The translations under genes and the position numbers were made by a program. The notes below the pieces were generated by a model that ran no database searches, was not told the origin of the DNA, and saw only the letters and a list, made by a program, of their open reading frames with translations. Positions 8,319 to 55,054 of a DNA stretch of 64,000 bases are shown here, piece after piece. Source of the DNA: Candidatus Eiseniibacteriota bacterium (GTDB taxonomy: Bacteria; Eisenbacteria; RBG-16-71-46; SZUA-252); the NCBI GenBank assembly GCA_035716005.1, contig DASTKG010000143.1, forward strand, positions 490 through 64,489. The letters run 5' to 3'. The stretch's first letter is position 1; each line of letters begins with the position of its first letter.

Positions 8319-8328
8319 CGCGAGCCCA

Positions 8329-25149: not shown

Positions 25150-26135
<986 letters not shown>

Positions 26136-26139
<4 letters not shown>

Positions 26140-27011
26140 TCACGCCGGAGCTTCTCGCTCAGGTCCGCCGGCTGACGATCCGAAGCCGCCGGGCGGTCGA
26201 GGAGGTTTTCTCCGGGGCGTACCGGAGCGCCTTCCGCGGGCAGGGGCTCGAATTCGCGGAAGTTCGTGAATACGTGCCCGGCGACGACATCCGATCGATC
26301 GACTGGAACGTGACGGCCCGGGCCGGCCGCCCCTTCGTGAAGCGTTTCGACGAGGAGCGCGAGCTGACGGTGATCGTGGCCCTCGACCTCTCGGGATCGC
26401 TCGCGTTCGGCAGCCGCTCTCGCGCGAAGCGCGACGCCGCCGCGGAGGCGGGCGCGCTCCTGGCGCTCGCGGCCGCGCGCAATCGCGATCGCGTCGGCCT
26501 CCTCCTCTTCACCGACCGCGTGGAGCTCTTCCTTCCGCCGGGGAAGAGCCGCTCTCGGGCGCTCCGCATCGCGCGCGAACTCCTCGCGTTCGAGCCGGAG
26601 GGGCGCGGCACCGACCTCGGCGCGGCGTTCGGCTTCCTCCATCGCGTCCTGCGCCGGCGCTCCGTCGTCTTCCTCATCTCCGACTGGCGCGGCGCCGGAT
26701 TCGATCGCCCCCTCTCGCTCCTCGCGCGGAAACACGACGTCGTGGCGCTCGACGTCGCCGATCCGCTGGAGCGGGAGGCTCCCACGCGAGGACTCCTCCG
26801 CGTGCGCGACCTCGAGACCGGCAAGGCGGCCTGGGTCGACGCCTCCTCCCGCGCGGCGCGCGGCGCCTGGCGCGCGGCCGTGGCCCGCCGCGGGAAAGAA
26901 CTCGATCAGACCTTCCGGCGCGCCGGGGTGCCGCGGCTCTCGCTCGACGCGGAACGCGCGGCGGCTCCGGTCCTCATCCGCTACTTCGAGCGCCGCGCGG
27001 CCTCTCGGTAG
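26136..27011 (+). CDS. DUF58 domain protein (VWA-like, MoxR partner)
   Basis: DUF58-typical DIRSIDWNVTAR and VIVALDLSGSL. The start overlaps the moxR stop. Confidence 0.75.
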
Positions 27012-27015
27012 GGCG

Positions 27016-28068
27016 ATGCGCGCGCGCCGACTGACTCGCCCGCGCGGAGCGATCGCCGCGGCGTTCGCGTTCGCGGTCCTCGTCCCGGCGCTGGCCGGCT
27101 GCGGCGGCTCGAACGAGGCGGGGAGCGCGCGCGAGCGGGACGAGCAGCGCGCCTACGGCCGCGTGGTGGCGCGAAGCGAAGTCTCGCCGCGCCGCGTCAC
27201 GCTCGGCGATCCCGTCGTCTGGACCCTGACCGCGACCCTGCCGCCGACGAGCGTCCCGGGAGCGGTGCGGCTCGCGCCGGCTCCCGCCACGCTCGAGATC
27301 GTGCCCCGCGGCGAACCGACGATCCGTCCCGCGCGGGGCGCCGTCGTCTGGAGCCGCGTCTACGATCTTCGAGGCTTCGATCTCGGCCCGCTTCCGCTTC
27401 CCGAGGCGCTCCTGCGCGTCAACGTGGGGCGGCCCGGGAGCGTCGTCGTCCGCGACTCGCTCCTCTTTCCGCCCGACACGCTCGCGGTCGATTCGCTCAC
27501 GCCGGCCGCGACCGGCGCCCTCTCGCCCGATCGCGGGCCCGTCGATCCGGGACTCCGGCCGATCGACGTCGCGGTCGCCGTGGGGTTGGCGCTGCTCGTC
27601 GTGGGACTCCTCGTCGCGCTCGTCCTGGCTTGGCGGCGCAGGCGGGCTCGCCCCGAGCCGGCCCTCCCCGGCGAGGCGCCGGAAGCCCCGTTCGCGCGGG
27701 CGCTCGAGTCGCTCCGGCAGGACGGCCCGGCCCTTCCGCGCGACGCGTTCCACGACCGCCTGAGCGACGCCATCCGCCGCTACGTGACCGCGGCGACCGG
27801 CGTCGACGCCATCGATCTCACGACGCGCGAGCTGGAGCGCGAGCTGAGACGCTCGCCGCGCGCCCGCGACGAGGCGGCGGCCGAGGTGGTCCGCATCCTT
27901 CGCCGCTCCGACCTCGTGAAGTTCGCGCGCCGCTCCGACGCGTGGGAGGAGGCGAAGACGCTCCTGGAGGACGCGGCCCGCCTCTCCGGCGCCGTGGCGG
28001 CGGAGCCCGCGCCTGGAGCGGAGCCCGCACCCGCTCCCACGCCCGCGCCCGGACGGGAAGGGACGTAG
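27016..28068 (+). CDS. hypothetical lipoprotein/membrane protein of the Bat-type operon (DUF4381-like position)
   Basis: Lipobox-like LAGCGG signal, an internal TM helix (VAVGLALLVVGLLVALVLAW), and conserved position between the DUF58 gene and batA. Confidence 0.5.
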   Translation: MRARRLTRPRGAIAAAFAFAVLVPALAGCGGSNEAGSARERDEQRAYGRVVARSEVSPRRVTLGDPVVWTLTATLPPTSVPGAVRLAPAPATLEIVPRGEPTIRPARGAVVWSRVYDLRGFDLGPLPLPEALLRVNVGRPGSVVVRDSLLFPPDTLAVDSLTPAATGALSPDRGPVDPGLRPIDVAVAVGLALLVVGLLVALVLAWRRRRARPEPALPGEAPEAPFARALESLRQDGPALPRDAFHDRLSDAIRRYVTAATGVDAIDLTTRELERELRRSPRARDEAAAEVVRILRRSDLVKFARRSDAWEEAKTLLEDAARLSGAVAAEPAPGAEPAPAPTPAPGREGT

Positions 28069-28071
28069 CCG

Positions 28072-29058
28072 ATGCGATTCGCCGCGCCCTGGTTCCTCCT
28101 CCTCCTGCTGCCGCTCCTCGCGGGCTGGCTCCTACGCTGGCGCCGTTCCCGCTGGCGCGAGCCGGAGCTTCCCGTGTCGAGCCTCGCGGCCTTTCCGTCG
28201 CCGAAGGGTTGGAAGCCGCGGATCGCGCCCCTCGCGGGCCGGCTCGTGGCGCTGGCGAGCCTCGCCTTCGTCGTCGCGGCGGCGCGCCCGCAGGCGGGAC
28301 GCGAAATGCGCGAGGTCGTGAGCGAGGGCATCGACATCGTTCTCGCCATCGATCTCTCGGGGAGCATGCGCTGCGAGGACTTCCGGCCGCAGAACCGGCT
28401 CTACGTCGCGAAAGCGGTGGCGAAGGAATTCCTGAAGGGGCGGAAGCAGGACCGGATCGGGCTCGTGGCCTTCGCGGGACGGAGCGAGCTGATCGCGCCG
28501 CTCACGCTCGACTACGACGGGCTCGCGTCGCTCATCGACGGGCTCGATTTCGGGATGCTCCCCGACGGGACCGCGGTCGGCGCGGCCGTGGCGCAGGGCG
28601 CGCAGCGGCTGCGCGAGGCGAAGGGGAAGAGTCGCGTGCTGATCCTCCTCACGGACGGAATCAACAACGCGGGCGCGATCGACCCGATCACCGCGGCGAG
28701 GCTCGCGGCCGCCGTGGGCGTGCGGGTCTACACCATCGGCGCGGGAACGCAGGGGCAGGCGCCCTTTCCCGTCGACGATCCGATCGTGGGACGCCGCTAC
28801 GTCTGGGTCCGATCGGAGGTGGACGAGCCGACGCTCCAGGCGGTCGCCACCGTGACGCACGGGCGTTTCTTCCGCGCGACGACCGCGGCCCTCCTCTCCC
28901 GCGTCTATCAGGAGATCGACAAACTGGAACCGTCGCGCATCGAGACGCGTTCGTATACGCAGTGGGCCGAGGTCGGCCCGATCTTCCTGGCGGCGGGGCT
29001 CGCGCTTCTGGGGCTCGACCTCCTCCTCCGCGCCACGCTGCTCAGGCGGTATCCCTAG
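28072..29058 (+). CDS. batA: BatA-like von Willebrand factor A domain membrane protein
   Basis: N-terminal TM, VWA MIDAS motif DLSGSM and a C-terminal TM. Confidence 0.75.
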   Translation: MRFAAPWFLLLLLPLLAGWLLRWRRSRWREPELPVSSLAAFPSPKGWKPRIAPLAGRLVALASLAFVVAAARPQAGREMREVVSEGIDIVLAIDLSGSMRCEDFRPQNRLYVAKAVAKEFLKGRKQDRIGLVAFAGRSELIAPLTLDYDGLASLIDGLDFGMLPDGTAVGAAVAQGAQRLREAKGKSRVLILLTDGINNAGAIDPITAARLAAAVGVRVYTIGAGTQGQAPFPVDDPIVGRRYVWVRSEVDEPTLQAVATVTHGRFFRATTAALLSRVYQEIDKLEPSRIETRSYTQWAEVGPIFLAAGLALLGLDLLLRATLLRRYP

Positions 29059-29059
29059 G

Positions 29060-30082
29060 ATGGGCGGCATGCGCTGGGCGGCTCCCGAGTGGTTCGCGCT
29101 TCTCTGGCTCCTGCCGGTCGCCGCGGCCTTTCTGGTCTGGATCGCGCGCGCGCGCCGGCGGGACGAGGAAGCGCTCGGCGATCCCGCGGCGCTCCGGCGG
29201 CGATGGGGCGCGCCGGGGGCGTGGAGCCCGCTCGTTCGCTCGGCGCTCCTGCTCGGCGCGGTCGCGGCCGCCATCGTCGCGCTCGCCCGTCCGCAGGCGG
29301 GGCTTCGCCTCGTGAGCACGACGAGCACCGGTCCCGACGTGGTGATCGCGCTCGACCTGTCGGAGAGCATGCGCGCGCGCGACGTCCGTCCCGACCGCCT
29401 GGTGGCGGCGCAGCGGGAGATCGCGGCGCTCCTCGCGTCGCTCGAGGGCTCCGGCGTCGGGCTCGTCGGTTTCGCCGGCGAGGCGCGGGTCCTGAGCCCT
29501 CTCACGACCGACGTCGAGGGACTGCGCGATCGGATCGACGCGGCGAGCCCCGAGGAGATGGATATCCCGGGCACCGACGTGGGCGCCGCGGTGGCGCTGG
29601 CGGGCCAGCTCCTGAAACGCCCCGGGGAGCGGCCGCGCGCCATCGTCCTCGTGACCGACGGAGAGCAGCAGGAAGGGGAGATCGCGCGCGGATTGCCGAT
29701 CGTGCGGGCCGCGGGCGCCTCGCTCTTCGTGCTCGGCGTCGGAACGCCCGAGGGGAGTTCCATACCGATCGTCGATTCGACCGGCGCCGTCGTGGGGGTG
29801 AAGCGGGACCGCGCGGGCCGCGAAGTGAGGACGCGCCTGGTGGAGGATGGATTGCGGGAGCTGGCGAGACGCGCGGGCGGGCAGTACGAACGGGCCGACG
29901 GAAGCGGGCGCGCCGGAAGGCACGCCGCGGCCGTCGCGCGCGGGCTCGCGCTCGGAGCCCGCGGGGATCGCGGCGGGCGCTCCCTTCGCGCGTACGACGA
30001 GCGCTTCCACTGGCTCGCGGCGATCGCGGTCCTCCTCCTCGCCGGCGAGAGCTTCGTTCCGCGGCGAAGGGAGGACGCATGA
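29060..30082 (+). CDS. batB: BatB-like VWA domain membrane protein
   Basis: VWA MIDAS motif DLSESM, a BatA paralogue with N- and C-terminal TM segments. Confidence 0.7.
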   Translation: MGGMRWAAPEWFALLWLLPVAAAFLVWIARARRRDEEALGDPAALRRRWGAPGAWSPLVRSALLLGAVAAAIVALARPQAGLRLVSTTSTGPDVVIALDLSESMRARDVRPDRLVAAQREIAALLASLEGSGVGLVGFAGEARVLSPLTTDVEGLRDRIDAASPEEMDIPGTDVGAAVALAGQLLKRPGERPRAIVLVTDGEQQEGEIARGLPIVRAAGASLFVLGVGTPEGSSIPIVDSTGAVVGVKRDRAGREVRTRLVEDGLRELARRAGGQYERADGSGRAGRHAAAVARGLALGARGDRGGRSLRAYDERFHWLAAIAVLLLAGESFVPRRREDA

Positions 30083-30834
30083 CCTCGAAGCGGCGCCGGG
30101 GCCCGGGCGGGATGGGGCGCGCTCCCGTCGAATTCCTCCTGCTCCTCGCGCTCGCGTCGCTCGGCGCGGGCTACGAGTGGGGCGGTCCCGCCGCGCGCGC
30201 GATCCAGCAGCTTCGCGCCGGGAAGTCGCGCGAGGCCGTCTCGTCGTTCGAGGAGGCGAGGCGGGAACGGCCGGCCTCCTCCGCCGTTCGCTACGACCAG
30301 GCGCTCGCGTTCGCCGCCGCCGGCATGGCCGATTCGGCGAGCGCCGCCTACCGCGACGCGCGCGACCTCCAAGGGGCCGCCGGGCGCGCCGCCGCCGCCT
30401 ACAACGAGGGAAACGCCGCCTACCGGCAGGGGAAGATCGAGGACGCCATCGCCGACTACCGCGCGGCGCTGCGGGAGGATCCGAAGCGCGCCGACGCGAA
30501 GCGGAATCTCGAGGAGGCGCTGCGCCGCGCCCGCGAATCGCGCCAGGCGCCGCTCTCGGGGAGCGGCGGAACGCAGGGAGACGGCTCGGGAGGCACGGGG
30601 CAGCGCCAGGGCGGCTCGACGCCCCCGCCGCCGGGCGCGGCGAACGCGCCGAACGATTCGAAGTCCGACTCGAAATCGAAGGATCGTCCCTCGCTCGGCG
30701 CGCCGGCTCCGAATCGCGAGGAGGCGGAGCACTGGCTCGACGCGCTCGAGGCCGAACGCCGCGCGGGACGATCGCGCGAGCAGGCGGCGAAGCGCGCCGC
30801 CTCGAGGGAGGGGAGCGTCGACCGTGACTGGTGA
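30079..30834 (+). CDS. batC: TPR-repeat protein (BatC-like)
   Basis: TPR-like helices (AAYNEGNAAYRQGKIEDAIADYRAAL) and a low-complexity K/S-rich tail. The ATG overlaps the batB stop. Confidence 0.6.
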   Translation: MTSKRRRGPGGMGRAPVEFLLLLALASLGAGYEWGGPAARAIQQLRAGKSREAVSSFEEARRERPASSAVRYDQALAFAAAGMADSASAAYRDARDLQGAAGRAAAAYNEGNAAYRQGKIEDAIADYRAALREDPKRADAKRNLEEALRRARESRQAPLSGSGGTQGDGSGGTGQRQGGSTPPPPGAANAPNDSKSDSKSKDRPSLGAPAPNREEAEHWLDALEAERRAGRSREQAAKRAASREGSVDRDW

Positions 30835-32602
30835 GCGCTCGATCCGGGTCGCGGCGGCCTCGGCGCTCCTCTTCGCGGCGCTCGCGGCGCTCGCGATTCC
30901 GTCGCCCGCGCGGGCGGCGATCATCCAAACCCGGGTGTCGGTCGACCCGCCGGTCGTCATGCTGGGCGAGCCCGTCAACGTCACGGTCACGGTGGAGAGC
31001 GACGGCTTCGCGCAAGCCGAGATCGTCCCTCCCAGTGTGGCGGGACTCTCGATCGAACGCGCCGGAACTTCGCAGAACCTCGTCATGGGCGCGGGGAGCG
31101 TGGTCCGAACCGACGTCTCCGTCTTTCGCGTGACGGCGGCCACGCTCGGGAAGCAGAAGATTCCCTCCTTCGAAGTCGTGTACGACCGGAAGGTCGTCCA
31201 GACCGGCCCGGCCCTCTTCGAGACGGTCTCCTCGCTCCCGAACGCGGGCGCGGCGCCGCGGGGCGGCGATGGGGCCCGGACGCGGCTCTTCGCGAGAATC
31301 GTCGTCGACCGGCGCCACGTCTGGTGGAACGAGCAGATCGTCGCGCGCATCCAGGTCTACTCCCGCTCGCCGCTCGAGGACATGCCGACGTGGGAGCCTC
31401 CCGAGGCGGCCGGATTCTGGAGCGAGCCGCTGGGCGACGCTCGGCACGGCCGCGTGGAGGTCGAGGGCGAGCCGTTCGAGCTCTACGAGCGGATTTTCGC
31501 CTTCTTTCCCACGCGGCCCGGCCGATTGGCGCTCGGGCCCGCGCGCGCGCGCGTCCGGGTCCTTCGCCCGCTCGCGCCCGTCGACGATCCCATCCTGGGA
31601 TTCTTTCCGGGGGCGGCGTCCGAAGTCGTGGAGCTGCCGGTCGAGTCGGCGCCGGTCGACATCGCCGTCGACCCGCTCCCGCGGGGCGCGCCGCCGGGAT
31701 TCCGCGGCGCCGTCGGCCGGCTCGCGCTCGGCGTCCGCGTCGACCGGCCCGCCTCGAGAGTCGGCGAGGCGATCACCGTGTCGACCTCGATCCGCGGCGA
31801 AGGGAACCTCGCCTCCGCCGCCGATCCGACGATCGTCACGCGCCCCGCGGCGCCTTCCTACCCGGCGGGCGCGAAAACCGAATTCGATCGGACCGGCGAT
31901 CGCGTTCGCGGCGTGCGCCGCCGCGACGTCGCCTTCGTGCCCGATCGCCCGGGCTCTCTCCTGGTCCTCCCGATCGAATTCGCCTGGTTCGATCCGGAGG
32001 AAGGGCGATACCGCGTGCAGCGCTCCGACAGCATCGTCGTCCGCGTCTCTCCGGCGAAGGAGGGCGCGGAGGGAGGCGCCGACGTCGCATCGACCGCCAT
32101 GGGAGTGCCGGCGCCGCCGCGGCCCGCCTCACGTGCCGGCGCGGGAGGGCCGCTGACCGGGCTTCCCACGGGCCTTCCGCTCGCCGTCTGGATCCTTTCG
32201 CTGTCGGGTTACGCGGTCGCCGGGGTCGCCGTCGCGTCGAGGCGCCGCGCCGTGCGCGATCCGAAGTGGCGGCGGGCGAGACTCGCCGAGGAGGCGGCGC
32301 GGCGCGTGGACGCCGCGTCGCGCGAAGGGGACGCGGCCCGCGCCGCCGAGCGAACGGAGGCGGCCCTTCGAGACGCGGCCGGGATCCGATTCGGCATCGA
32401 CCCGGAGGGGAGATCGAGACGGGATCTCCTCGAGCGGTTGCGCGCGGCCGGGGTGGGGCCGGAGGAGGTGGAGGAGGTGACGGGGATCCTCGGACGGCTC
32501 GAGCGAGGCGCGTTCGCCCCCGGCGGGCGCGACGACGTCGCGCACGCGATTCGCGAGGCGACGGCGCTCGCCGCGCGCTGGAGGGACGCGTGCCGGAGCT
32601 GA
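30824..32602 (+). CDS. batD: BatD-like protein (oxygen-tolerance family)
   Basis: Signal peptide, a large extracytoplasmic beta-rich region, a single C-terminal TM and a cytoplasmic tail, consistent with BatD architecture. Confidence 0.6.
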   Translation: MTGERSIRVAAASALLFAALAALAIPSPARAAIIQTRVSVDPPVVMLGEPVNVTVTVESDGFAQAEIVPPSVAGLSIERAGTSQNLVMGAGSVVRTDVSVFRVTAATLGKQKIPSFEVVYDRKVVQTGPALFETVSSLPNAGAAPRGGDGARTRLFARIVVDRRHVWWNEQIVARIQVYSRSPLEDMPTWEPPEAAGFWSEPLGDARHGRVEVEGEPFELYERIFAFFPTRPGRLALGPARARVRVLRPLAPVDDPILGFFPGAASEVVELPVESAPVDIAVDPLPRGAPPGFRGAVGRLALGVRVDRPASRVGEAITVSTSIRGEGNLASAADPTIVTRPAAPSYPAGAKTEFDRTGDRVRGVRRRDVAFVPDRPGSLLVLPIEFAWFDPEEGRYRVQRSDSIVVRVSPAKEGAEGGADVASTAMGVPAPPRPASRAGAGGPLTGLPTGLPLAVWILSLSGYAVAGVAVASRRRAVRDPKWRRARLAEEAARRVDAASREGDAARAAERTEAALRDAAGIRFGIDPEGRSRRDLLERLRAAGVGPEEVEEVTGILGRLERGAFAPGGRDDVAHAIREATALAARWRDACRS

Positions 32603-33294
32603 CCCGCGCGGGCGATCTCTACAACGCCGGGAGCGAGGCGCTCGCCAACGGCAATCTGGGCGAGGCGGTCCTCTTCCTTCGCGCGGCGTCGCGGCTCGAG
32701 CCGCGCGCGAAGGACGTGGCGCGGAATGTCTCGATCGCCGAGGCGCGCGTGGCGCTGACGCGCGGCGAGGGACCGACGCGGCTCTCGGGCGGGGGCGGCT
32801 TCGGGCTTTCGAGCGGCGAAGCGTGGCTCCTCGCCGCCCTGCTGATCGCGCTCGGCGCCGCGGGACTGGCGTGGCGCCGCCGGCGCCTCGCGCGGATCGC
32901 CGTTTCGGCCGCCGGCTCGGACGCCCTCCGCGATCCTCGCTCGCTCCTCGCGAGCCGCGTGCTCGACGCCGCGGGGATCGCGGGATTCGCGCTCTCCGCG
33001 TGGCTCGCGGCGGGCGCGGTCATGGAGCGCGTGGCCCCGGAGGCGGTGGTGCTCGATCGATCGCTTCCGCTCACCGCGGCGTCGGGCCAGCCTCTGCCCG
33101 AGGCGCCGGCGCTCGTGGCGGGGGAGCGCGTCCGTCTCGGCGCCGAGCGGGAAGGGCTCGTGGAGATCCGGCTCGGGGGGACGAACGTCGGCTGGGCGCG
33201 CCGGTCGGGCGTGTGGCGGGTGGTCGACGCGTCACGCTATACTCTCCCTTCTTCCACGGATGGGAACGTGCGGCCCGGGAGGACGAATGGATAA
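32590..33294 (+). CDS. batE: BatE-like protein (TPR N-terminus, TM, SH3b-like C-terminus)
   Basis: The GTG start overlaps the batD stop. A TPR-like segment, one TM and a C-terminal beta-rich region are present, in the BatE operon position. Confidence 0.5.
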   Translation: MPELTRAGDLYNAGSEALANGNLGEAVLFLRAASRLEPRAKDVARNVSIAEARVALTRGEGPTRLSGGGGFGLSSGEAWLLAALLIALGAAGLAWRRRRLARIAVSAAGSDALRDPRSLLASRVLDAAGIAGFALSAWLAAGAVMERVAPEAVVLDRSLPLTAASGQPLPEAPALVAGERVRLGAEREGLVEIRLGGTNVGWARRSGVWRVVDASRYTLPSSTDGNVRPGRTNG

Positions 33295-34003
33295 CGAAGC
33301 GACGGCCATCATCACGGGGGGCACGGGAGCCCTCGGCTCCGTCGTGACGCGCTCGTTCCTGCGCGCGGGCTATCGCTCGGCCGTGACCTATCGCGCGTCG
33401 AAGGAGTGGGAGGCGCTGGCGGCCTCGGAGAAGGCGGCCGTCGCGGAGGGCCGCCTCCTAGGATTCGCCGCCGACGTCACCGACGATGCCTCGCTGGAGG
33501 GCGCCGTCGCGTCGGCCGCGTCCGAGTTCGGCCGCCTCGACGTTCTGGTCCACGTGGCGGGCGGCTACGCCGGCGGAAGGACCGTGGAGAACCTCGACGC
33601 GAAGAGCGTGCGGGGCATGATCGACCTCAACCTCGTCTCCGCCTTCTGGGCGGCGAAGCACGTCGTCCCGCACGCCAAGAAGCATGGCCGCGGACGGCTC
33701 CTCTTCATCTCCTCGCGCGGCGCCGTGGAATGCCAGCCGGGCGCGGCGCCGTACGCGGCCGCGAAGCTCGGCCTTCACGCGCTCGTCCAGACGCTGGCCA
33801 GGGAGCTGAAGCGCGACGGCGTGACCGCCCACGCGGTCCTGCCGAGCGTCATCGATACGGCGGCGAATCGGGCCGCGATGCCGGACGGCGAGTTCGGCGA
33901 CTGGGTGAAGCCCGAAGCCATCGCCGAAGTCCTCGTGTTCCTCGCTTCCGAAAACGCCGCGGCGACGTCGGGAGCGCTCGTGCCGATCTATGGGAGGGCC
34001 TGA
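33287..34003 (+). CDS. SDR-family NAD(P)-dependent oxidoreductase
   Basis: TGGTGALG Rossmann motif and a YAAAK catalytic YxxxK. GGGAGG RBS precedes the ATG. It overlaps the batE stop by 8 nt. Confidence 0.8.
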
Positions 34004-35112
34004 TGAGCGACGCCCGTCCGAAGTACCAGAAGGGTCCCCGCATCGCGCCTGAGCCGCTGAAGCCCGGCGTGACCGTCGACCAGCTCGTCGACAGCACCTT
34101 CCTCGCCTACAACGGCGCGCGCTTGCGGGAGGCCTGCCGGCTCCTGGTGGAGCGGATGCTCGAACCCGACGTCACCGTGGGGCTCACCCTGAGCGGCGCC
34201 CTCACGCCGGCGGGCCTCGGACGCTCCTGCCTCATCCCGCTTCTCAAGGCCGGCTTCGTCGACTGGATGATCTCGACCGGCGCGAATCTCTACCACGACA
34301 CCCACTTCGGCATCGGCCTCACCATGCACCAGGGCCACTCGAACGCCGACGACATCGCGCTTCGCGAGCAGGGGATCGTGCGGATCTTCGACATCTTCTT
34401 CGACTACGAGGTCCTTCTCTCCACCGACGCGTTCTTCCGCGAAGTGATGCGGCAGCCCGAATTCCGCCGCCCGATGAGCACGGCCGAGTTCCACCACAGG
34501 GCCGGCCGCTACGTCGCGGAGCGGGAGAAGGCGCTGGGCCAGGTCGAGACCTCCCTGCTCGCGGCCGCGCACGGGCTCGACGTGCCGATCTACACCTCCT
34601 CGCCGGGCGATTCCTCGATCGGCATGAACGCGGCGGCGATCCAGCTCGAAGGGGAGGCGATCCACTGGGACACGTTCCAGGACGTGAACGAGACGGCCTC
34701 CATCGTCTACGGCGCGAAGAAGGTGGGCGGCAAGAGCGCCATCCTCATCCTTGGCGGAGGCTCGCCGAAGAACTTCGCGCTCCAGACGGAGCCGCAGATC
34801 CAGGAAGTCCTCGGGCTCGACGAGGCGGGGCACGACTACTTCCTGCAAGTGACCGACGCGCGCGCCGACACGGGCGGGCTCTCGGGCGCCACGCCCGGGG
34901 AGGCGGTGTCGTGGGGGAAGATCGATCCCGACCGGCTCCCCGACGCGGTGGTGGCGTACGTCGACAGCACCGTCGCGCTTCCGATCCTGACGGCGTACGC
35001 GCTCAGCAAGCGGCCGGCGCGCCCGCTGAAGCGCCTCTACGCGAAGCGCGAGTCGCTCCTTGCGGATCTGAAGGCCGCGCACGCGGAGGCGCGAGCGGCG
35101 GGGACTCGGTGA
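34003..35112 (+). CDS. deoxyhypusine synthase-like protein (DHS/homospermidine-synthase family)
   Basis: Conserved DHS C-terminal active-site motif [10 protein letters not shown] (the catalytic Lys context of eukaryotic DHS) and a glycine-rich [15 protein letters not shown] region. TGATG overlap with the SDR gene. Confidence 0.75.
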
Positions 35113-36257
35113 CCCTCGCTCGGAGAGCGTGGGGCGCCGCGGTCGCGTTCCTCGCGCTGGCGTCGTCGTCCGGATGGGTGCCGAGCGCCGCCGGAGCCCC
35201 CTATCCGCCGTCCCAATTCTGCGGCGCGTGCCACGGTCCGCTCCGGACGCAGTGGGCGGCGTCGGGTCACGCCACGTCGTGGACCAACCCCGTCTTTCAG
35301 GCGTTCCTGGCCCAGGCGACGGAGACGCTCGGCAAGGACGTCCAGGCGTCGTGCATTCCGTGCCACGCCCCGCTGGCGCACGTGACGGGGGACTTGAAGG
35401 TGGACGACGCGGTCGCGAAGGAGGGGGTCACCTGCAACTTCTGCCACAACGTGAGCGCCGTCGATCCCTCGACGAAAGCCGGCTCCTACACGTTCGATCC
35501 GTCGAACCCGAATCTCATGCGCGGACCGTACAAGGACGCCGATCCGGCCGGGGCGCACGAGGCGGTCTATAGCGAGGTCCACACGAAGTCGGAATTCTGC
35601 GCGGCGTGCCACTCCTTCACGCACCCTCGGAGCGGAGTCCTGATCGAGGGGACTTACCTTTCCTGGAAGCGCTCCGGCGGCGCCGAGTACGACATGACGT
35701 GCCAGGAGTGCCACATGCCGCCGACGTCCGGACGCGCCGCCACGGTCACGGAGAAGACGCGCAGCGCCGTCTATTCGCACCTCTTCGCGGGTCCGCGGAA
35801 GGCGCCCGCGATGCTCGACGACGCCGCGGCCATGAAGGGCTCGGTGGCGGGAGGGCGGCTTCGCCTGGAGGTCGAGAACACGAAGGCGGGGCACTCGCTT
35901 CCCGGCGGCGGCAATTCGATGCGAACGATCACCCTCGACGTCGTCTTCAAGAACGCCGCCGGCGCCGAGGTGCAGTCCATTCAAGCCGAGCGATTCGGCA
36001 CCGAGTTCGCCGACGCCGAGGGCGTCTTCCCGGTTCCGAAGTGGAACGCGCATTCGGTCGCGCGCGACACGGAGATCGGGCCCGACTCCTCGCGCGTCGT
36101 TTGGTGCGACATTCCGGCGGGAGCCTCCCGCGCGGACGCCGTCCTCACGTATCACGCGATCCATCCCGCCTATCGAGCGATGCTCGTGAAGCGCGGGGTC
36201 GATCTTTCCGGCCGCGCCCCGATCGTGCTGGCGCGGACCACGGTGACCTTGCCATGA
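35109..36257 (+). CDS. pentaheme c-type cytochrome (periplasmic)
   Basis: Signal peptide and five CxxCH motifs (CGACH, CIPCH, CNFCH, CAACH, CQECH). The GTG overlaps the DHS stop. Confidence 0.75.
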
Positions 36258-37387
36258 GCGCTTCCACCACCGAACGCCCCATTCCGCTTCTCGACCTCGC
36301 CGCCCTCCACCGGCCGCTGACCGACGAATTGCGCCAGGCCTTCGACCGGGTTCTCGCGTCGGGGCAGTTCATCCTGGGGGCCGAGCACGACGCCTTCGAG
36401 CGGGAGCTGGCGGCCGCGTGCGGAACGAAGCACGCCGTCGGGCTCTCCTCGGGCACGTCGGCCATCTCGGTCGGGCTCCAGGCCCTCGGCGTGAAGCCGG
36501 GGGACGAGGTCGTCGTTCCGGCGTTCACCTACTTCGCCACGGCGAGCGCCGTCTATCACGCGGGCGCCACGCCGGTCTTCGCCGACGTGGAGCCGGCGCG
36601 CTTCGGCCTCGATCCGGCCGCGCTCGAGGCGGCGATCACGCCGAGGACGAAGGCCGTCGTCCCGGTTCATCTCTACGGCCTCGCCTGCGATCTCGCCCCG
36701 CTCGTCGAGATCGGCGCCCGGCGGGGGATACCTCTCCTCGAGGACGCGGCGCAGGCGATCGGCGCGACCGACGGCGGGCGCCCCGTGGGGGCGACCACCG
36801 CGGGGGCGACCCTCTCCTTCTTCCCGACGAAGAATCTCGGCGCGCTCGGCGACGCCGGCGCGCTCCTCACCGATCGCGACGACGTGGCCCAGAGAACGCG
36901 CCTCCTGCGCGTCCACGGCGACGCCGGCGACTATCGCCACACGGCGCTCGGCACGAACGCTAGGCTCGACGGACTGCAGGCGGCGCTCCTCCGCGTGAAG
37001 CTTCGCCACCTTGCCGGGTGGACCGAGGCGCGCCGGCGGAACGCGGCGCTCTATCGCGAGGCGCTGGCCGGAACGCCGGTCGTCCTCCCCGTGGAGCCGG
37101 CGGGGGCCGTGCACACGTACCACCAGTTCACCATTCGCGCGCCGCGCCGCGACGAACTCCAGCGGCATCTGAAGGAGAGCGGCATCGCGTCGCGCATCTA
37201 CTATCCGATCCCGGTGCCGGCGCAGCCCTGCTTCGAGGGCGCGGCCGCCGTCGGGAAATACCCCGTCTCCGATCGGCTGGCGGGGGAAGTTCTCTCGCTT
37301 CCGATCGGTCCCGAGCTGACGTCCGAGTCGATCGATCGGATCGCGGGCGCCATCCGCGGCTTCTACGGCGGGGGCGGGGGCTCCTGA
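36254..37387 (+). CDS. DegT/DnrJ/EryC1/StrS-family PLP-dependent sugar aminotransferase
   Basis: LSFFPTKNLGALGDAG PLP-lysine motif and the family N-terminus LLDL..L...L..A...VL.SG. Confidence 0.8.
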   Translation: MSASTTERPIPLLDLAALHRPLTDELRQAFDRVLASGQFILGAEHDAFERELAAACGTKHAVGLSSGTSAISVGLQALGVKPGDEVVVPAFTYFATASAVYHAGATPVFADVEPARFGLDPAALEAAITPRTKAVVPVHLYGLACDLAPLVEIGARRGIPLLEDAAQAIGATDGGRPVGATTAGATLSFFPTKNLGALGDAGALLTDRDDVAQRTRLLRVHGDAGDYRHTALGTNARLDGLQAALLRVKLRHLAGWTEARRRNAALYREALAGTPVVLPVEPAGAVHTYHQFTIRAPRRDELQRHLKESGIASRIYYPIPVPAQPCFEGAAAVGKYPVSDRLAGEVLSLPIGPELTSESIDRIAGAIRGFYGGGGGS

Positions 37388-48486: not shown

Positions 48487-50094
48487 CTAGAACCGAATCA
48501 GCGCCACGGCCTGCCATTGGGAGGCTTCGCCGCTCTCCCCGTTTCGATTGTGCCGCGTTCCGAAGATGTACTCGATGCCGAGATCGATTCGACTCGACGG
48601 CGAAATGATGCCGTTGATCGCGAGGCGATTCGTGTAGCGGTAGGCGTCGGGGGACTGGAAGTCGAAGTTGTAGACCTTTACGTAGCTCCACAAGAAGGTC
48701 GAGTAGAAGTTCATGTTCTCGAGCGCCTCCCAGACCTTCCAGACGTGCTCCCAGGCGACGTACCACCCCAGGGCGGGGAGGGGCCTCATCTCCTGCGTCG
48801 TCGTATCGACGACGGCGTCCTGGCCGCCCAGCGACTGGAGATCGTTGATGTAGCGGGCGATCCCGACTCCGCCGTTCACCTGAAAGATCAGGCGATCCGG
48901 GATCGTCTTGATCGGGAACGGAAGGACGCCGCTCACGCTACCGCCTCCCGCCCACTTGGTGCTCACCTGTCCACTCTCGAGCTGCGCCCGGATTTGGCGA
49001 AGGACGCCAGCGAACTGGAAGTGCCCGTCCTTCTTGGCCGGGATGTAGGCGCGGGCGACCACGTCCGGGAAGAGACTCACCCCCTCGCCGCCGGTGATCG
49101 AGGCCGCCGGCTGCTCGGCGGCCACGGCGAGGCGAGTCCCCGGCTTGGGACTCCACCAATAGCGGATCTGCGGTTGGCGAATGACGTTTTCACTGCTGAC
49201 GCCCTCGAAGTCGAGGTCGTGATGGTCTGCGTTCGGATCGGAAAAGGTGGACCACGTCTGGCCCGCGATGACGCCCTTGAACTGCGCGTAGGCGTGGCGG
49301 AGGCGAAACGAGTTCGCGGTGCCCGCGAAATCTCCCTCGAAGAAGGCGCGAACCTCCTGTTTGCCGTTCGGAGTCCGGAACTCGACGTTCAACCGACTCG
49401 CGCGCGCCGAAATGTTGGTCCGCATGGCGCTGCCGGACGCGCCCACGTCGCCGACCGGGATCGAGTTCGTGAGGAATCGATCGTCGGTGCCGAGGGGATC
49501 GAGCGTCAGGACCGCCGCGGTACGGATTCGCCCACCGAACTTGATGGCGGCGTCCGTGCCCGGAATTCGGATCGAGCCGGGAAAATCCCCGGCGGCGACG
49601 ACGTCGGGTGGGAGTTCCGGCGACTTCTGAGTCGCCTCCTCGATCTGCTTGAGGCGCTTCTCGAGATCGGTCTGCAAGGCGGGGAGGCCCGATTGGCTCG
49701 ATAGCTCTTCCAGCCGCTTCTGCATCACCTCGAGTTGCTTCTGGAGCTCCTGCAGCGCCTCCTGCTGCCGCGCGATCGCCACCGATTGGCTGTCGGCGAC
49801 GGCTTGTCGCGACACGAGGAGAGACTCCTGCGCGGCAATCCGGGCCTGCTGCGACTCGATCATCGCGCGCTGGGCCTCGATCTCCTTCTGCTGGGCCGTG
49901 ACGCGGCTCGTGAGGGATGGGGCGGTGGACTTGGGCTTCGCCTTCGTGGCGGGCGCGGCGGTCGCCGGGGACGCGACGAGAAGGACGGCTCCGACCACGA
50001 TGGCCACCGCGAAGGCCAGAGCCCACGCGCCGCCCAGGCGCCACGAGGGCCTTCCCGGGCGGAGCCGGAGAGAGTGCGGGCGCGATCCGATCAT
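48487..50094 (-). CDS. outer-membrane porin with an N-terminal periplasmic coiled coil (DcaP-like)
   Basis: Signal peptide, a ~90-aa Q/E/L-rich heptad region (QQKEIEAQRAMIESQQARIAAQ...), then a beta-barrel-like body ending in ...ALIRF (C-terminal Phe). Start taken at the internal Met (MIGSRPH). Confidence 0.65.
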   Translation of the reverse strand: MIGSRPHSLRLRPGRPSWRLGGAWALAFAVAIVVGAVLLVASPATAAPATKAKPKSTAPSLTSRVTAQQKEIEAQRAMIESQQARIAAQESLLVSRQAVADSQSVAIARQQEALQELQKQLEVMQKRLEELSSQSGLPALQTDLEKRLKQIEEATQKSPELPPDVVAAGDFPGSIRIPGTDAAIKFGGRIRTAAVLTLDPLGTDDRFLTNSIPVGDVGASGSAMRTNISARASRLNVEFRTPNGKQEVRAFFEGDFAGTANSFRLRHAYAQFKGVIAGQTWSTFSDPNADHHDLDFEGVSSENVIRQPQIRYWWSPKPGTRLAVAAEQPAASITGGEGVSLFPDVVARAYIPAKKDGHFQFAGVLRQIRAQLESGQVSTKWAGGGSVSGVLPFPIKTIPDRLIFQVNGGVGIARYINDLQSLGGQDAVVDTTTQEMRPLPALGWYVAWEHVWKVWEALENMNFYSTFLWSYVKVYNFDFQSPDAYRYTNRLAINGIISPSSRIDLGIEYIFGTRHNRNGESGEASQWQAVALIRF

Positions 50095-50111
50095 GTCGCC
50101 GCTCGCGACGC

Positions 50112-51464
50112 CTAGAACATCAACGAGTAGGCGATGGCCACCGTCGATCCGGTCTGGCCGGCGGTGTAGTACCCGAAGGTGCTTCCGACCGGGCTGTGGT
50201 TCACGCCGATGTACTGGACGTTCAGGCGCGTGTCGCGGGTGTCGAACGGATACCAGTTCGAGCCGAGGATGTACTCGTTGGAGTCGCCGAAGCCCGCGTC
50301 CTCGTCGCCGTAGATCTGCGACGTGGCGACATAGACCTCCCACTTCTTCGGGATCGCGTACGCCGCCGCCTGGATGTAGAAGCCGCGGTCCTGGATCTCG
50401 GACGTGGGCACCGGTCCGTCGGCCTTGAACTTATCGAGCCACCGGATGTAGTGCTCCGCCTGGAGGAAGAAGCCGCGATGCTTCACGCCGGCGTCGACGG
50501 CGAGGACGCGATAGTCGGCGTTGGAGACCGTGACGCCGTTGGCGAGGGCGCCCGACTCGAAGAGGTTGACGCCGTCGGCGAGCTTCAGGGTCGTGTTCGT
50601 GGAGGTGCCGCTCCCCGTGAAGCTCTGCTCCGGGCTGTAGCAGTAGGAGGCACCGAATCGCGTGGCGACCTTTTCGTGCCTTTCGTAGTCGCCGTAGGCG
50701 CCGCGCGGACCGAACTCGCCCGTCGGCATGTACCAAACGGAGCCGCTCACGGTCGGATCACGGTCGAGGTCGGCCGCCTTGACGCCGAGGATGCTATTGC
50801 TGTTGCTCAGGAACGCGTTATACCAGAGGCCGCGAAACAGCTCCCCGTTCGCGTAGACCCCGGCTCCGAAGAAGGGGCGGAAGAACTCGTCGGCCATCAC
50901 CCGGTCGTTGCCGAGCCAGTAGGGGTGCGATCCGAGGAGGGATCGCGTCCCCGCGTTCCCCGCGATGCCCGCGTAGAGATTGAATTGTGGACTGAACTGA
51001 TACCCGATGTTCGCGAAGAGGGCGTCCTGATCCGTCGCGTTGACGGTCCAGAGGGTGAAGACGTAGATCAGCTTCGGATCGAACATCCACCCTTTCGCCC
51101 AGATCATGACGCGGTGCGGGTAGAGATCCTGGCGTCCATCCGTCTGACGCTGGTTTCCCAGATGGTCCGTCCAGGTCTGGGACGCGGGCGTCTGGTTGAT
51201 GTAGCGGATGAGGCCGTAGGCGCTGATGGCGAGCTCGCCGTGCTCGGTCCTCGCGACGAGGAACCCCTTGCCCGGGTCGTACGTGCCCCAGGTCTCCCGC
51301 TCCGGGAGCGTGGGTTCCTTCGCCGCCGCCACCGAGTCGGCCTTGGCCGTGATCGATGAATCGGCCTTGGCGTCCGCTCCTTCGGCCGCGGTCGGATTGG
51401 CGGCGCACAACGTCAGCGATGCGGCGAGCAGAATCCACGCATTCACTCTCATGATCCGGGTCAT
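50112..51464 (-). CDS. outer-membrane porin (beta-barrel, C-terminal Phe)
   Basis: Signal peptide, alternating amphipathic strands with aromatic girdles, and a terminal ...YSLMF. Confidence 0.6.
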   Translation of the reverse strand: MTRIMRVNAWILLAASLTLCAANPTAAEGADAKADSSITAKADSVAAAKEPTLPERETWGTYDPGKGFLVARTEHGELAISAYGLIRYINQTPASQTWTDHLGNQRQTDGRQDLYPHRVMIWAKGWMFDPKLIYVFTLWTVNATDQDALFANIGYQFSPQFNLYAGIAGNAGTRSLLGSHPYWLGNDRVMADEFFRPFFGAGVYANGELFRGLWYNAFLSNSNSILGVKAADLDRDPTVSGSVWYMPTGEFGPRGAYGDYERHEKVATRFGASYCYSPEQSFTGSGTSTNTTLKLADGVNLFESGALANGVTVSNADYRVLAVDAGVKHRGFFLQAEHYIRWLDKFKADGPVPTSEIQDRGFYIQAAAYAIPKKWEVYVATSQIYGDEDAGFGDSNEYILGSNWYPFDTRDTRLNVQYIGVNHSPVGSTFGYYTAGQTGSTVAIAYSLMF

Positions 51465-51613
51465 CCTTCCCGTCGGCCGGGACTAAGGGTCTGTGCGTCC
51501 AGATATCTCGATGAGCGAGTCAGTCCGTGCATCGGGGAATAAGGCCGTCCGCCGGGCGCCGGCGCCAACCCAGACACGCCGCGGGACCGACGGACGGCCG
51601 TTCCGAATCCTGC

Positions 51614-52678
51614 TTACCGAGGCTTCGGCGCGTACGGGTTGCCGCCCACGGCGTTCGACACGTCGGCGATCGCCTTCTGGGCCTTGACGCTGTTGCCGGC
51701 CGCGTCGAGCGGCGGCGAGATCACCGCGATTCCGAACTTGCCGGGAGAGACGGCCAGGATGCCGCCGCCCACGCCGCTCTTGGCCGGGAGACCGGTCCAG
51801 AAGAGCCACTTGCCGGAATCGTCGTAGAGGCCCGCGGTCGCCATCACGGCGAGCACCTCGGGCACGTTTTCGGTCTTCATGCACTGCTTGGCGGTGACGG
51901 GATTCTTGCCGCCGTTGGCGAGCGTCGCCGCCATCGTGGCCAGGTCCTTCGCATTCACGCTGATGGCGCACTGCTCGGTGTAGATGTCGCAAGCCTGGAG
52001 CGGGTTGTCCTTGATGTGGCCGTAGGCGTACATGAGCATCGCGATCGCCTGATTGCGCTGGTTGGTCGCCGCCTCTGAGTCGAAGACTTCCTTGTTGACC
52101 GTGAGCGGACGGCCGGCGAAGTCGCTGTGAATGCCGAGAATCTTGTTCCAGATCTCGTCGCGGTTGGCGCCGCTCACCATGCTCGTGGCCGTGATGGCGC
52201 CCGGGTTGACCATGGCGTTCATCTCGGCGCCCTTGTACTGCTCCACGGCGTTGATGGAGTTGAAGACCTGGCCGGTGGCGTCGACGCCCATGTTGTCCCG
52301 GATCGCTTCGGGGCTCTGCTCCTCCATGACCTTCGCCATGGTGAAGACCTTCGAGATCGACTGGATCGAGACTTCGGACGTGATATCGCCGGCGCTGTAG
52401 ACCTTGCCGTCGACGGTCACGAGAACGATGCCGTAGATCTTGGAATCGACCTTCGCGAGCGCCGGGATGTAGTCGGCGTTCTTGCCTTCCTGGAGATCTT
52501 TGAACTTGGCGTACGCGCCATCCACGGCCGCCTGATAGGCCGGCGCGGCCGGCGCGGCGGTTTTTCCGCCCTTCTGCGCGAAGGCCGAAGCGGAGGCCAC
52601 GGCCAGCATGACGACGACCAGCGTCAGCGCGCGGAAGCCGCCCGCGACGCGATGAAGCCGCTCATCGAAGCGGATCAC
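51614..52678 (-). CDS. glsA: glutaminase with signal peptide
   Basis: Glutaminase-family SIQSISKVF active-site serine motif and ~300-aa catalytic core. An N-terminal signal peptide is present. The start overlaps the upstream porin stop. Confidence 0.8.
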   Translation of the reverse strand: MIRFDERLHRVAGGFRALTLVVVMLAVASASAFAQKGGKTAAPAAPAYQAAVDGAYAKFKDLQEGKNADYIPALAKVDSKIYGIVLVTVDGKVYSAGDITSEVSIQSISKVFTMAKVMEEQSPEAIRDNMGVDATGQVFNSINAVEQYKGAEMNAMVNPGAITATSMVSGANRDEIWNKILGIHSDFAGRPLTVNKEVFDSEAATNQRNQAIAMLMYAYGHIKDNPLQACDIYTEQCAISVNAKDLATMAATLANGGKNPVTAKQCMKTENVPEVLAVMATAGLYDDSGKWLFWTGLPAKSGVGGGILAVSPGKFGIAVISPPLDAAGNSVKAQKAIADVSNAVGGNPYAPKPR

Positions 52679-53919
52679 TGGTTACCTCCCGTATTGATCG
52701 AGAAGCTGTACTTGAACGACACCTGGATGTGGGTGTCGTCGAACTTGAACCCGTCGGTGGTGGCGTCGCCCTTGTTCTCCCGCTCGATCCAGCCGCCCTC
52801 GATGCCGCACATGAAGTTCGGCACGGGGGTGTAGAGCAGATTCGCGAGCATGTACTGGCCGGTCTTGAAGGCCGTCGCGCTCTGTCCTTCGGAGTTGTCG
52901 ATGTCGAGGCGCGAGTATCCGATGGAGCTGCTGAACTTCTCGTTCCAGGTGTGATCGAGGAACGCCACGATTCCGGTCACCGGAAGCGCCACGCCCTTCA
53001 CGGGCTGGACCGGGTCGCTCGGCGTGTTCTCGGTGCCGATGTCGACGGGGGCGTCGTTCATGTAGTTCTCGACGCCCTCGCCATGGAGAAACTGGAGCCG
53101 CGCGACGTTCGCCTTGCCGAGCTTGAGATTGGAGCTGACGTTGAGGCCCCAGCCCGTGACGGCGTCGGAGAGATCCTGGGTCTGGGCGGGGCCCGCCGTG
53201 ATGTCGTCCCACTCGATCTGCCGCACGATTCCGGCCGCCTCGAAATAACCCCAGGGACGCGTGACGCGGTACTCGGCCGATAGATCGGGAAGCGGATAGC
53301 GGGCGCGGATCCCCGAGAGGTCGGCGATTTCGGAGGAAACCCCCTGGTCGCCGCTGGCGCCCGGGCGCTCGAGCGCGATCGTCATGCTGTTGTCGCCCTG
53401 GAGGGGCATGTAGCGGAGTTGGACGTTCCGAAAGAACGCCATTCCATTCGGGCCCCAGTACTCGAGCGTGTTCGGGAAGACGTCGATGTCCATGAAGGGG
53501 CTCCACGTCTGGCCGGCACCCCATTTGCCGAGCTCGCCGTAGGCGTGACGGAGCCGGAACGTCGTCTGGCCCGCGTCGACGCCCACGCCGTAAAGCTCGA
53601 ACTCGAACGTCGTCTTGATGTCGCCCATCTCGGTCGGAAGCGTCGACTTCACGCCGAAGCGCGTCTGCCGGGCGCTGAAGAAGACGCTTCCATCCTTCCC
53701 GAGCGCATCGGCCGCCGCCTGGGACTCCGGTAGCTTGGTCGGGCGCTGCGCGTCGAACCAGTTCGGATCGATCGCCTCGTTGTTGTAGCCGGCGTCCATC
53801 ATCACGAAGCCGTAAAAATTCATCGTGGCCGAATCGGCGGCCATCGCCGGCGCGGCGCCGCATACCGCGACGATCGCGAGGGCGACGAGCCATCCAGCGG
53901 ACGTTCTCGACTTGCTCAT
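52675..53919 (-). CDS. outer-membrane porin paralogue (DcaP-like barrel without the coiled coil)
   Basis: Signal peptide. The shared block FRLRHAYGELGKWGAGQTWSPF matches FRLRHAYAQFKGVIAGQTWSTF in the 48487..50094 porin. The C-terminal 10 residues are ...KYSFSINTGGNQ, with the YSF triplet at positions -9 to -7. Confidence 0.6.
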   Translation of the reverse strand: MSKSRTSAGWLVALAIVAVCGAAPAMAADSATMNFYGFVMMDAGYNNEAIDPNWFDAQRPTKLPESQAAADALGKDGSVFFSARQTRFGVKSTLPTEMGDIKTTFEFELYGVGVDAGQTTFRLRHAYGELGKWGAGQTWSPFMDIDVFPNTLEYWGPNGMAFFRNVQLRYMPLQGDNSMTIALERPGASGDQGVSSEIADLSGIRARYPLPDLSAEYRVTRPWGYFEAAGIVRQIEWDDITAGPAQTQDLSDAVTGWGLNVSSNLKLGKANVARLQFLHGEGVENYMNDAPVDIGTENTPSDPVQPVKGVALPVTGIVAFLDHTWNEKFSSSIGYSRLDIDNSEGQSATAFKTGQYMLANLLYTPVPNFMCGIEGGWIERENKGDATTDGFKFDDTHIQVSFKYSFSINTGGNQ

Positions 53920-53950
53920 ATCGTTCCTCCTGGGTTGATCCGAAGCGGGC

Positions 53951-55054
53951 TCACCGGCCCGGCTTCAGGTGCGCGGCTTCCCATGCCCGCGCGTTCCGAC
54001 GTCCTTCGTCGAAAATTCGCTCGTAGTTTCCCTTCCGGACTTTCTCGCTCGCCTCCTTGGTGAGCAGGGTCCACAGCGGCTGGTACATGTCGTAGACCTT
54101 GAAGTGGGACGCGGAATCGGCCGGCGCCACGTTGTCGGTGCCGAAGAGGAACCGGTCCGGATACTTGTTGATGAGGTCGGCGGTGCGCCGCGTCGCCTCG
54201 GGGCTCGAGATCACGTACTTCGCCGTCTCGTCCCACGAAAGATCGAAGGAGACGCGGACGCAGGCCGGGTCCTCGAGGATGTCCTCCAGCATGTCGAGGT
54301 GGTGGCTGACGGGCTGGACGACCCGCCCAACCCCGACGTGGGCCCAGATGATCGAGTTCTTCGGGTGCCGTTTCAGGAGGTCCTTGAACTCGGCGAGGAA
54401 CTTGGGCGTTTCGCCCTTGCGCGGGTAGGGCCGGTCGACGTCGTTGTGGATGATGCAGACCAGGCCGACCTCGGCGGCGAAGTCGAGCAGGCGGTCGAGC
54501 GCCGGGTCGGTGAGGCTCGCGATATCGCCCGCGATCTTCGAGGAGACGAACTCCTTGTGGATGCTGAACTCGCCGATTCCCGAGAAGACGCCGGGGAACG
54601 TGAGGAGAACGCGGCGGATGTGATCCGCGGCGTACATGTCGGTGGGATTGAAGCCGGTGATCATCGGATCGAATCGCGCCTGCTCCGACTTGGAGAGCGA
54701 CTTGTAGGCCATCGCGATGGCCGCGTCGGTGAAGGAGTAGTAGTAGAGCCGGGCGTCGGTATCGAGGTAGTAGGTCGGGGCGTCGGTGCCCGAAACGCGG
54801 TACGACCACTGCTGCTGAAGCGGAATGCCGAAAAGGGTCGAGCGGCCCACGCGATGACCCATGAGCTTCAGGTAGCGGTGGATGTCGATCCCTTCCTGGA
54901 CATAGTTCGTGAGGTGGAAATGCGAGTCGTTGAATTCGTAACGGCTCGAGCTCGCGCTTGCCGGCGCGGCGGCGGTGGGAAGGGGAGCGGCGGCGGCGAT
55001 CGCGGAGGCGATGACGGCCATTGCGCAGACGCGGCCGATGGCTCGAATGCTCAT
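53951..55054 (-). CDS. amidohydrolase-family metal-dependent hydrolase with signal peptide
   Basis: N-terminal DSHFHL (HxH) metal-binding motif typical of the amidohydrolase_2/TIM-barrel hydrolases. Start taken at the internal Met (MSIRAIG) preceded by GGAGA. Confidence 0.6.
   Translation of the reverse strand: MSIRAIGRVCAMAVIASAIAAAAPLPTAAAPASASSSRYEFNDSHFHLTNYVQEGIDIHRYLKLMGHRVGRSTLFGIPLQQQWSYRVSGTDAPTYYLDTDARLYYYSFTDAAIAMAYKSLSKSEQARFDPMITGFNPTDMYAADHIRRVLLTFPGVFSGIGEFSIHKEFVSSKIAGDIASLTDPALDRLLDFAAEVGLVCIIHNDVDRPYPRKGETPKFLAEFKDLLKRHPKNSIIWAHVGVGRVVQPVSHHLDMLEDILEDPACVRVSFDLSWDETAKYVISSPEATRRTADLINKYPDRFLFGTDNVAPADSASHFKVYDMYQPLWTLLTKEASEKVRKGNYERIFDEGRRNARAWEAAHLKPGR

Follow-up and report, generated by a model that had tools for sequence, protein, structure and literature searches.

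The gene speY, carried on a 64-kb stretch of DNA (the window, by which the whole stretch analyzed is meant), is proposed to encode a SpeY-type enzyme descended from deoxyhypusine synthase (DHS). The enzyme is predicted, from comparison with characterized homologs, to catalyze the homocoupling of agmatine on a route to homospermidine that passes through N1,N9-bis(guanidino)homospermidine (G44G, caldomycin); we put the probability of this reading at about 0.85. As such, speY is an ordinary member of a characterized and curated family, already known and bringing little new biology: a curated NCBI model would name it automatically, and the work that resolved what the family does dates from 2018 to 2026. 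The value of the assignment lies in annotation, in that the lineage is predicted to make homospermidine from agmatine via G44G and not from putrescine or spermidine.

Family assignment of the speY product

The initial annotation recognized a DHS homolog, and this identification holds: PF01916 (DS) is the sole Pfam family matched by the speY product (225 bits, E = 1.3e-66, residues 34-332). Among the NCBIfam equivalogs, NF001980.1 ("homospermidine biosynthesis protein") is matched with 547.5 bits against a trusted cutoff of 450, over model positions 1-349 of 350, and the SpeY of Cylindrospermum stagnale (CsSpeY) scores 588.5 bits on NF001980. The model of the caldomycin synthase clade, NF002699, gives the speY product 156.4 bits, below its trusted cutoff of 500, and gives Thermus thermophilus CdmS 545 bits; the DHS equivalogs NF002006, NF002630, TIGR00321, NF002294 and NF003052 give 88-219 bits, all below their cutoffs of 304-434. 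By blastp the speY product shows 59% identity with CsSpeY (356 aa), 39% with CdmS (317 aa) and 23% with human DHS; the reference sequences of CdmS, CsSpeY, human DHS and Arabidopsis DHS were taken from the supplementary material of Kobayashi et al. 2024 (PMC10981699). These identities, together with a score above the cutoff on NF001980 and below it on NF002699, place the speY product, as judged by sequence, in the cyanobacterial-type clade of SpeYs, which has the Thermus clade as its sister.

Its closest known counterparts are accordingly the SpeYs of heterocystous cyanobacteria (Anabaena sp. PCC 7120 and C. stagnale), which likewise exceed the NF001980 cutoff; CsSpeY belongs to the same length class and has one 25-residue motif, one 16-residue motif and an 8-residue insertion in common with the speY product. 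The two differ in their settings, since the host of the window is a high-GC uncultured Candidatus Eisenbacteria-like bacterium, in which the neighborhood of speY is different and polyamine partner genes are absent within 64 kb.

The view that bacterial DHS-like proteins are mostly uncharacterized, from which the initial annotation started, does not survive the NF001980 match, as the function of SpeY is established genetically in Anabaena and biochemically in Thermus and in six further species (PMC10981699, PMC13625781). SpeY is essential for Anabaena to make homospermidine (Burnat et al. 2018, cited in PMC13625781). Purified CdmS from T. thermophilus consumes agmatine but neither putrescine nor spermidine, its product is bis-guanidino homospermidine (caldomycin, G44G), and deletion of cdmS abolishes homospermidine (PMC10981699). 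Using BLASTP with Anabaena SpeY, Li et al. 2026 (PMC13625781) found six SpeYs from five phyla, the sources being Alphaproteobacteria, Bacteroidota, Chloroflexota, Armatimonadota and a non-photosynthetic cyanobacterial relative. With all six, G44G accumulates in E. coli without speB (agmatinase), and the tested SpeYs yield no homospermidine unless a ureohydrolase accompanies them; neither human nor plant DHS produces G44G in E. coli (PMC13625781). The published SpeY work of 2018-2026 has G44G converted to homospermidine by a ureohydrolase or an iminohydrolase. We regard a biochemical link between the assayed SpeYs and the NF001980 clade as probable, given that those SpeYs were picked out by BLASTP with the Anabaena protein and that the pocket is conserved.

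Active site and predicted mechanism

Residue equivalences were drawn from phmmer matches to PDB sequences, from a MAFFT alignment with the literature sequences and from a 204-sequence alignment, and conservation was counted over 200 relatives (120 database matches and 80 genomic loci); the coordinates are collected in Table 1. The catalytic-lysine motif and the glycine-rich NAD region that had been noticed at the outset are both conserved in position on alignment to human DHS: K306 corresponds to K329, G251-253 to G282-284 and K256 to K287, the NAD residues are in register, and the WGKI match is not coincidental. Further equivalences to human DHS are D203 to D238, T92 to T131 and D321 to D342. 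Human H288 is replaced by N257, an Asn being found in CsSpeY and CdmS as well, and the insertion EPQIQEVL is present in the speY product, CsSpeY and CdmS and missing from eukaryotic DHS.

Table 1. Coordinates of speY, its predicted active-site elements and its neighbors in the window.
Feature	Position	Strand	Basis
SDR-family oxidoreductase gene, 5' of speY; possible starts 33260 or 33287	33287-34003	+	PF00106, 139 bits
GGGAGGG, Shine-Dalgarno-like sequence, 5 nt 5' of the speY ATG, within the 3' end of the SDR gene	33992-33998	+	direct sequence reading
speY, 369-aa deoxyhypusine-synthase-fold protein	34003-35112	+	ATG at 34003 to TGA ending at 35112
M208 codon, at the position of human DHS D243 (spermidine-amine ligand); F in CdmS	34624-34626	+	alignments
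GGGSPKN, G251-N257, glycine-rich NAD loop	34753-34773	+	alignments
L293 codon, at the position of human DHS D316; L in CdmS too	34879-34881	+	alignments
10-residue lysine motif, residues 298-307, including E300 (human E323, CdmS E293) and W304 (human W327)	34894-34923	+	alignments
K306 codon, predicted enzyme-imine lysine (human DHS K329; CdmS K299 in the numbering of the paper)	34918-34920	+	alignments
Secreted pentaheme c-type cytochrome gene, 5 CXXCH, between speY and the aminotransferase gene	35109-36257	+	
DegT/DnrJ/EryC1-family sugar aminotransferase gene	36254-37387	+	PF01041, 378 bits

Kobayashi et al. (PMC10981699, where the CdmS numbering is offset by +5 from the supplementary alignment of that paper) described a CdmS pocket that resembles that of human DHS and keeps the catalytic Lys and Glu, but has Phe and Leu in place of Asp243 and Asp316. 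The same positions hold M208 and L293 in the speY product, and this CdmS-like substitution leads us to predict agmatine as both donor and acceptor. The substitutions run through the family, M208 being Met in all 200 relatives and L293 being Leu in 199; K306 is Lys in 198, with gaps in the other two, and M208, L293, N257, E300 and K306 are each identical in 198-200 of the 200. For M208, L293, E300 and N257 the count is 199-200, and CsSpeY has these four residues as well, where CdmS has F, L, E and N. The guanidino ligand proposed in the CdmS model, S67, is Ala (A66) in the clade of the speY product, a difference that weighs against the reading.

An AlphaFold2 model with 14 homologs reached a pTM of 0.79 and a mean pLDDT of 73, with pLDDT below 50 in the active-site loop 286-316, and served for fold assignment alone, not for pocket geometry. 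The top Foldseek matches of this model in the PDB were all DHS (TM 0.6-0.72), and phmmer against PDB sequences matched archaeal and human DHS; no bacterial SpeY structure was among the DHS-fold PDB matches listed from the sequence and fold searches. The speY product shares the fold, the NAD scaffold and the predicted lysine-imine mechanism with eukaryotic and archaeal DHS (EC 2.5.1.46; human DHPS 6XXJ, Pyrococcus 7CMC), but is only 19-26% identical to them, lacks the spermidine-binding aspartates and H288, carries an extra insertion and would not be expected to meet an eIF5A/aIF5A substrate in a bacterium. That no hypusine should be formed had been anticipated, and this agrees with the scores below cutoff on the DHS equivalogs and with the replacement of the spermidine-binding D243 and D316 and of H288. 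To our knowledge bacteria have EF-P and not IF5A, and none of the window genes that were scanned resembled IF5A.

With Thermus CdmS the speY product has in common the DHS fold, the catalytic Lys, a Glu at the E323 position, an Asn for H288 and hydrophobic residues at the D243 and D316 positions, and by analogy the chemistry is predicted to be alike, two agmatine giving G44G and NH3; it differs in belonging to the sister clade, in being 39% identical and in having Met where CdmS has Phe at the D243 position and Ala for S67. A comparison with bacterial homospermidine synthase (HSS, EC 2.5.1.44; Blastochloris viridis, 4TVB) had also been suggested. Both enzymes would serve the end product homospermidine with NAD as a prosthetic group, but HSS adopts a different, non-homologous fold, lacks a catalytic lysine and acts on putrescine (PMC4725965; PMC13625781). 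The speY product showed no similarity to HSS or carboxyspermidine dehydrogenase, DS being its only match in Pfam and DHS its only sequence and fold matches in the PDB.

The mechanism that we propose follows that of characterized homologs. Tightly bound NAD+ would dehydrogenate the primary-amine C-N bond of one agmatine, and the 4-guanidinobutylidene unit would be passed to K306 as an imine, NH3 being lost. Attack on this imine by a second agmatine would displace the lysine, and reduction by NADH would yield G44G. By stripping off its guanidino groups, a G44G-specific ureohydrolase, or an iminohydrolase together with an amidohydrolase, presumably encoded elsewhere in the genome, would then produce sym-homospermidine, the predicted triamine of the cell. 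The substrate, the product and the ADC and hydrolase partners that we infer for the source organism are all assigned by analogy. An earlier proposal of small-molecule aminobutyl or aminoalkyl transfer therefore stands in part: the characterized homologs bear out alkyl transfer to a small molecule, but the predicted substrate is agmatine and not spermidine or putrescine.

Genomic context of speY

The window has a G+C content of about 70%, and speY lies in a single array of 36 co-directional genes extending from position 3 to 42575 (gene call by codon-position G+C). The stop codon of the SDR gene (TGA, 34001-34003) and the speY start codon (ATG, 34003-34005) have one base in common in the sequence TGATG, as first described. 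Stop/start overlaps, however, are found at 21 of the 35 junctions of this array, so that the coupling of the SDR gene to speY carries no specific information; overlapping stop and start codons in compact co-directional arrays should not be read as evidence of a shared pathway. The SDR gene product matched no NCBIfam model at cutoff. The aminotransferase gene does lie downstream of speY, as had been pointed out, but it is not the next gene, the pentaheme cytochrome c gene standing between them. The genes after the aminotransferase gene are AsmA-like and ABC-2 transporter genes, and this company points to a function of the aminotransferase in the cell envelope.

When essentially all 57 genes called in the 64-kb window were searched with Pfam, none proved to be an ADC, ODC, arginase-family, agmatine deiminase, CN-hydrolase or AdoMet_dc gene, and a phmmer search of its six-frame ORFs found no relative of the speB-like and speD-like genes of Thermomicrobiales described below. 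No gene for arginine decarboxylase (ADC), agmatinase, agmatine iminohydrolase, N-carbamoylputrescine amidohydrolase (NCPAH) or a SpeD homolog is present within the window, which weighs against the proposed pathway.

The context of speY was compared across seven contigs and 80 species loci, with all-against-all clustering of the neighboring genes. Among the sampled loci, the SDR-speY pair occurs only in a Candidatus Eisenbacteria-like clade of at least 78% identity, which comprises the window and seven other loci (L001-L005, L014 and L015). All of them share synteny over about 20 kb, in the order SHMT, MoxR/Bat operon, SDR, speY, multiheme cytochrome, DegT, AsmA-like and ABC-2 transporter. The 1-nt overlap of SDR gene and speY is retained at all eight loci, at which the SDRs have diverged to 59-64% identity; the SDR beside speY in L015, for example, is 63% identical to that of the window. 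No SDR, DegT or cytochrome gene adjoins speY in any of about 85 loci from other phyla (Gemmatimonadota, Acidobacteriota, Binatota, Planctomycetota, Chloroflexota, Bacteroidota, Ignavibacteria and a cyanobacterial MAG), where the orthologs are 63-72% identical. The neighbors there are of other kinds, among them a LOG-family gene (28 Gemmatimonadota loci), phoH-ybeY-corC (Pyrinomonadaceae) and an inositol monophosphatase gene (Binataceae).

Most sampled speY loci have no polyamine-gene cluster. Two Thermomicrobiales loci (L057 and L074, 66-67% identity) carry a cluster of a gene for a 139-140-aa SpeD homolog, an arginase-family gene and speY. This arrangement corresponds to the SpeDA/SpeB/SpeY gene-cluster architecture known in other phyla (Li et al., PMC13625781) and provides independent contextual support for a polyamine role of the clade.

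Alternative functions

[quoted passage not shown] We nevertheless regard such an activity as very unlikely, given that the spermidine-amine-binding aspartates of human DHS are Met and Leu throughout the family, that CdmS leaves putrescine and spermidine unused (PMC10981699), and that the tested SpeYs reach homospermidine only by way of G44G and agmatinase, G44G being a compound that eukaryotic DHS does not form (PMC13625781); the NCBIfam DHS models, too, all score the speY product below cutoff. The lysine-imine chemistry might alternatively have been kept for its ancestral purpose, the modification of a protein lysine, for instance in EF-P as a bacterial analog of deoxyhypusination. Descent from a protein-modifying enzyme would fit this role, as would the unusual conservation across phyla (63-72% identity) of a gene that is mostly not clustered with polyamine genes. 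We know of no experimental precedent for it, and neither an EF-P gene nor an EF-P-modification gene stands beside speY in any of 93 loci, the recurrent neighbors being the LOG-family, phoH-ybeY-corC and inositol-phosphatase genes. The characterized members of the family, moreover, are small-molecule enzymes (PMC10981699, PMC13625781), and a protein substrate appears extremely improbable.

The remaining alternatives concern the neighbors of speY. The initial annotation took the SDR and the aminotransferase as pathway evidence, and a dedicated operon of SDR, DHS homolog and DegT for a novel modified amine or aminoalkylated metabolite would accord with the persistence of the 1-nt overlap at eight of eight clade loci in spite of the divergence of the SDRs, and with the cytochrome and DegT genes remaining downstream in the same clade. 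Synteny there, however, extends over the entire block, SHMT through ABC transporter, which implies that the pair is not selectively conserved, and SDR, DegT and cytochrome genes are all missing beside speY in other phyla even though the active sites are invariant. A gene for a periplasmic cytochrome, furthermore, splits DegT from speY, an AsmA-like/ABC-2 sequel to DegT is typical of envelope glycan synthesis, and overlaps of the SDR-speY kind recur along the array. A dedicated operon is therefore very unlikely, and the SDR/DegT pairing, being confined to the closest clade in the comparative context, was rejected as a functional signal; most likely the SDR, cytochrome and aminotransferase genes are unrelated neighbors in a dense lineage-specific array. 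It is equally unlikely that the SDR-SpeY pair, perhaps with the cytochrome and DegT, was recruited in the Eisenbacteria-like clade for a polyamine-derived compound, such as an oxidized or aminated derivative of homospermidine or G44G destined for the envelope or for ABC-2 export; such a recruitment, if true, would take SpeY beyond the bulk production of homospermidine.

Distribution of relatives

Sequence databases contain many relatives of the speY product: clustering at 90% leaves at least 8000 proteins with E<=1e-10. In a species-representative genome collection, 599 of the 600 pattern-matched stretches listed encode a relative. On plasmids, tblastn detected nothing closer than distant DHS-like genes of <=33% identity, carried by Nostoc/Trichormus and haloarchaea. 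The closest named relatives among the matches listed are from Candidatus Eisenbacteria MAGs, at 79-87% identity, and probably indicate the lineage to which the window belongs; across phyla, identity within the SpeY family is 63-72%, with invariant active sites.

Genes surrounding speY in the window

The speY gene belongs to a long co-directional array (see table) in which adjacent genes overlap at 21 of the 35 junctions and lie no more than 10 nt apart at nine others. Its content is mixed, including LPS core glycosyltransferases, RseP, BamA/TamB, UvrD, GatCAB, PurD/PurE, SHMT, the Bat operon, speY itself and an ABC-2 transporter. The MoxR/Bat-type operon, which encodes a MoxR AAA ATPase, a DUF58 protein, a membrane protein, two VWA proteins (BatA/BatB-like), a TPR protein, BatD and a BatE-like protein, is kept in the Eisenbacteria loci L001-L005 that hold close relatives of speY. 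The c-type cytochrome carries CXXCH motifs at residues 38, 82, 109, 164 and 198, and bears only weak similarity to ExtKL/NrfH-type cytochromes. Besides two DcaP-like outer-membrane porins, the minus-strand cluster encodes a glutaminase, an Amidohydro_2 protein and a 406-aa protein that carries no annotation, and it may be a unit for uptake and catabolism of amino acids or amides.

Features in the window and in the Thermomicrobiales loci
Feature	Coordinates	Strand	Position
Co-directional array, 36 consecutive genes	3-42575	+	
MoxR/Bat-type operon, complete	25228-33294	+	directly upstream of the SDR gene
Pentaheme c-type cytochrome, secreted	35109-36257	+	between speY and the DegT aminotransferase gene
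Minus-strand gene cluster	48487-55021	-	
Thermomicrobiales speY cluster	L057 5269-9143; L074 76-3386		

Neighbourhoods and variants of speY in other genomes

The two Thermomicrobiales clusters (L057 and L074, loci of more distant orthologues) comprise genes for a SpeD homologue (AdoMet_dc, 139-140 aa), an arginase-family protein and a SUKH-domain protein together with speY, and L057 additionally has a HicB-like gene. The SpeD homologue probably acts as a SpeDA-type arginine decarboxylase, and each locus is a canonical agmatine-to-homospermidine cluster with immunity/antitoxin-type genes interposed. At the Gemmatimonadota locus L006, speY (8001-9191) overlaps by 4 nt at its start with a LOG-family gene (7162-8004) whose product matches PF03641 'Lysine_decarbox' and LDcluster4. 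This pair is kept in 28 Gemmatimonadota loci (L006 and 27 others); no link between homospermidine synthesis and LOG nucleotide hydrolases is known.

A second, distant DHS-like gene is found on Nostoc and Trichormus plasmids (AP018224.1, 191624-192547; NC_007410.1; NZ_CP047243.1; NZ_CP054697.1). Annotated as deoxyhypusine synthase and showing 33% identity to the window protein, it is separate from the SpeY type of cyanobacteria exemplified by CsSpeY of Cylindrospermum stagnale. On a MAG contig labelled Latescibacterota (L015), the speY match (1273-2322, 84% identity) spans two ORFs (646-1968 and 1965-3491), which suggests a frameshift caused by an assembly error or a pseudogene.
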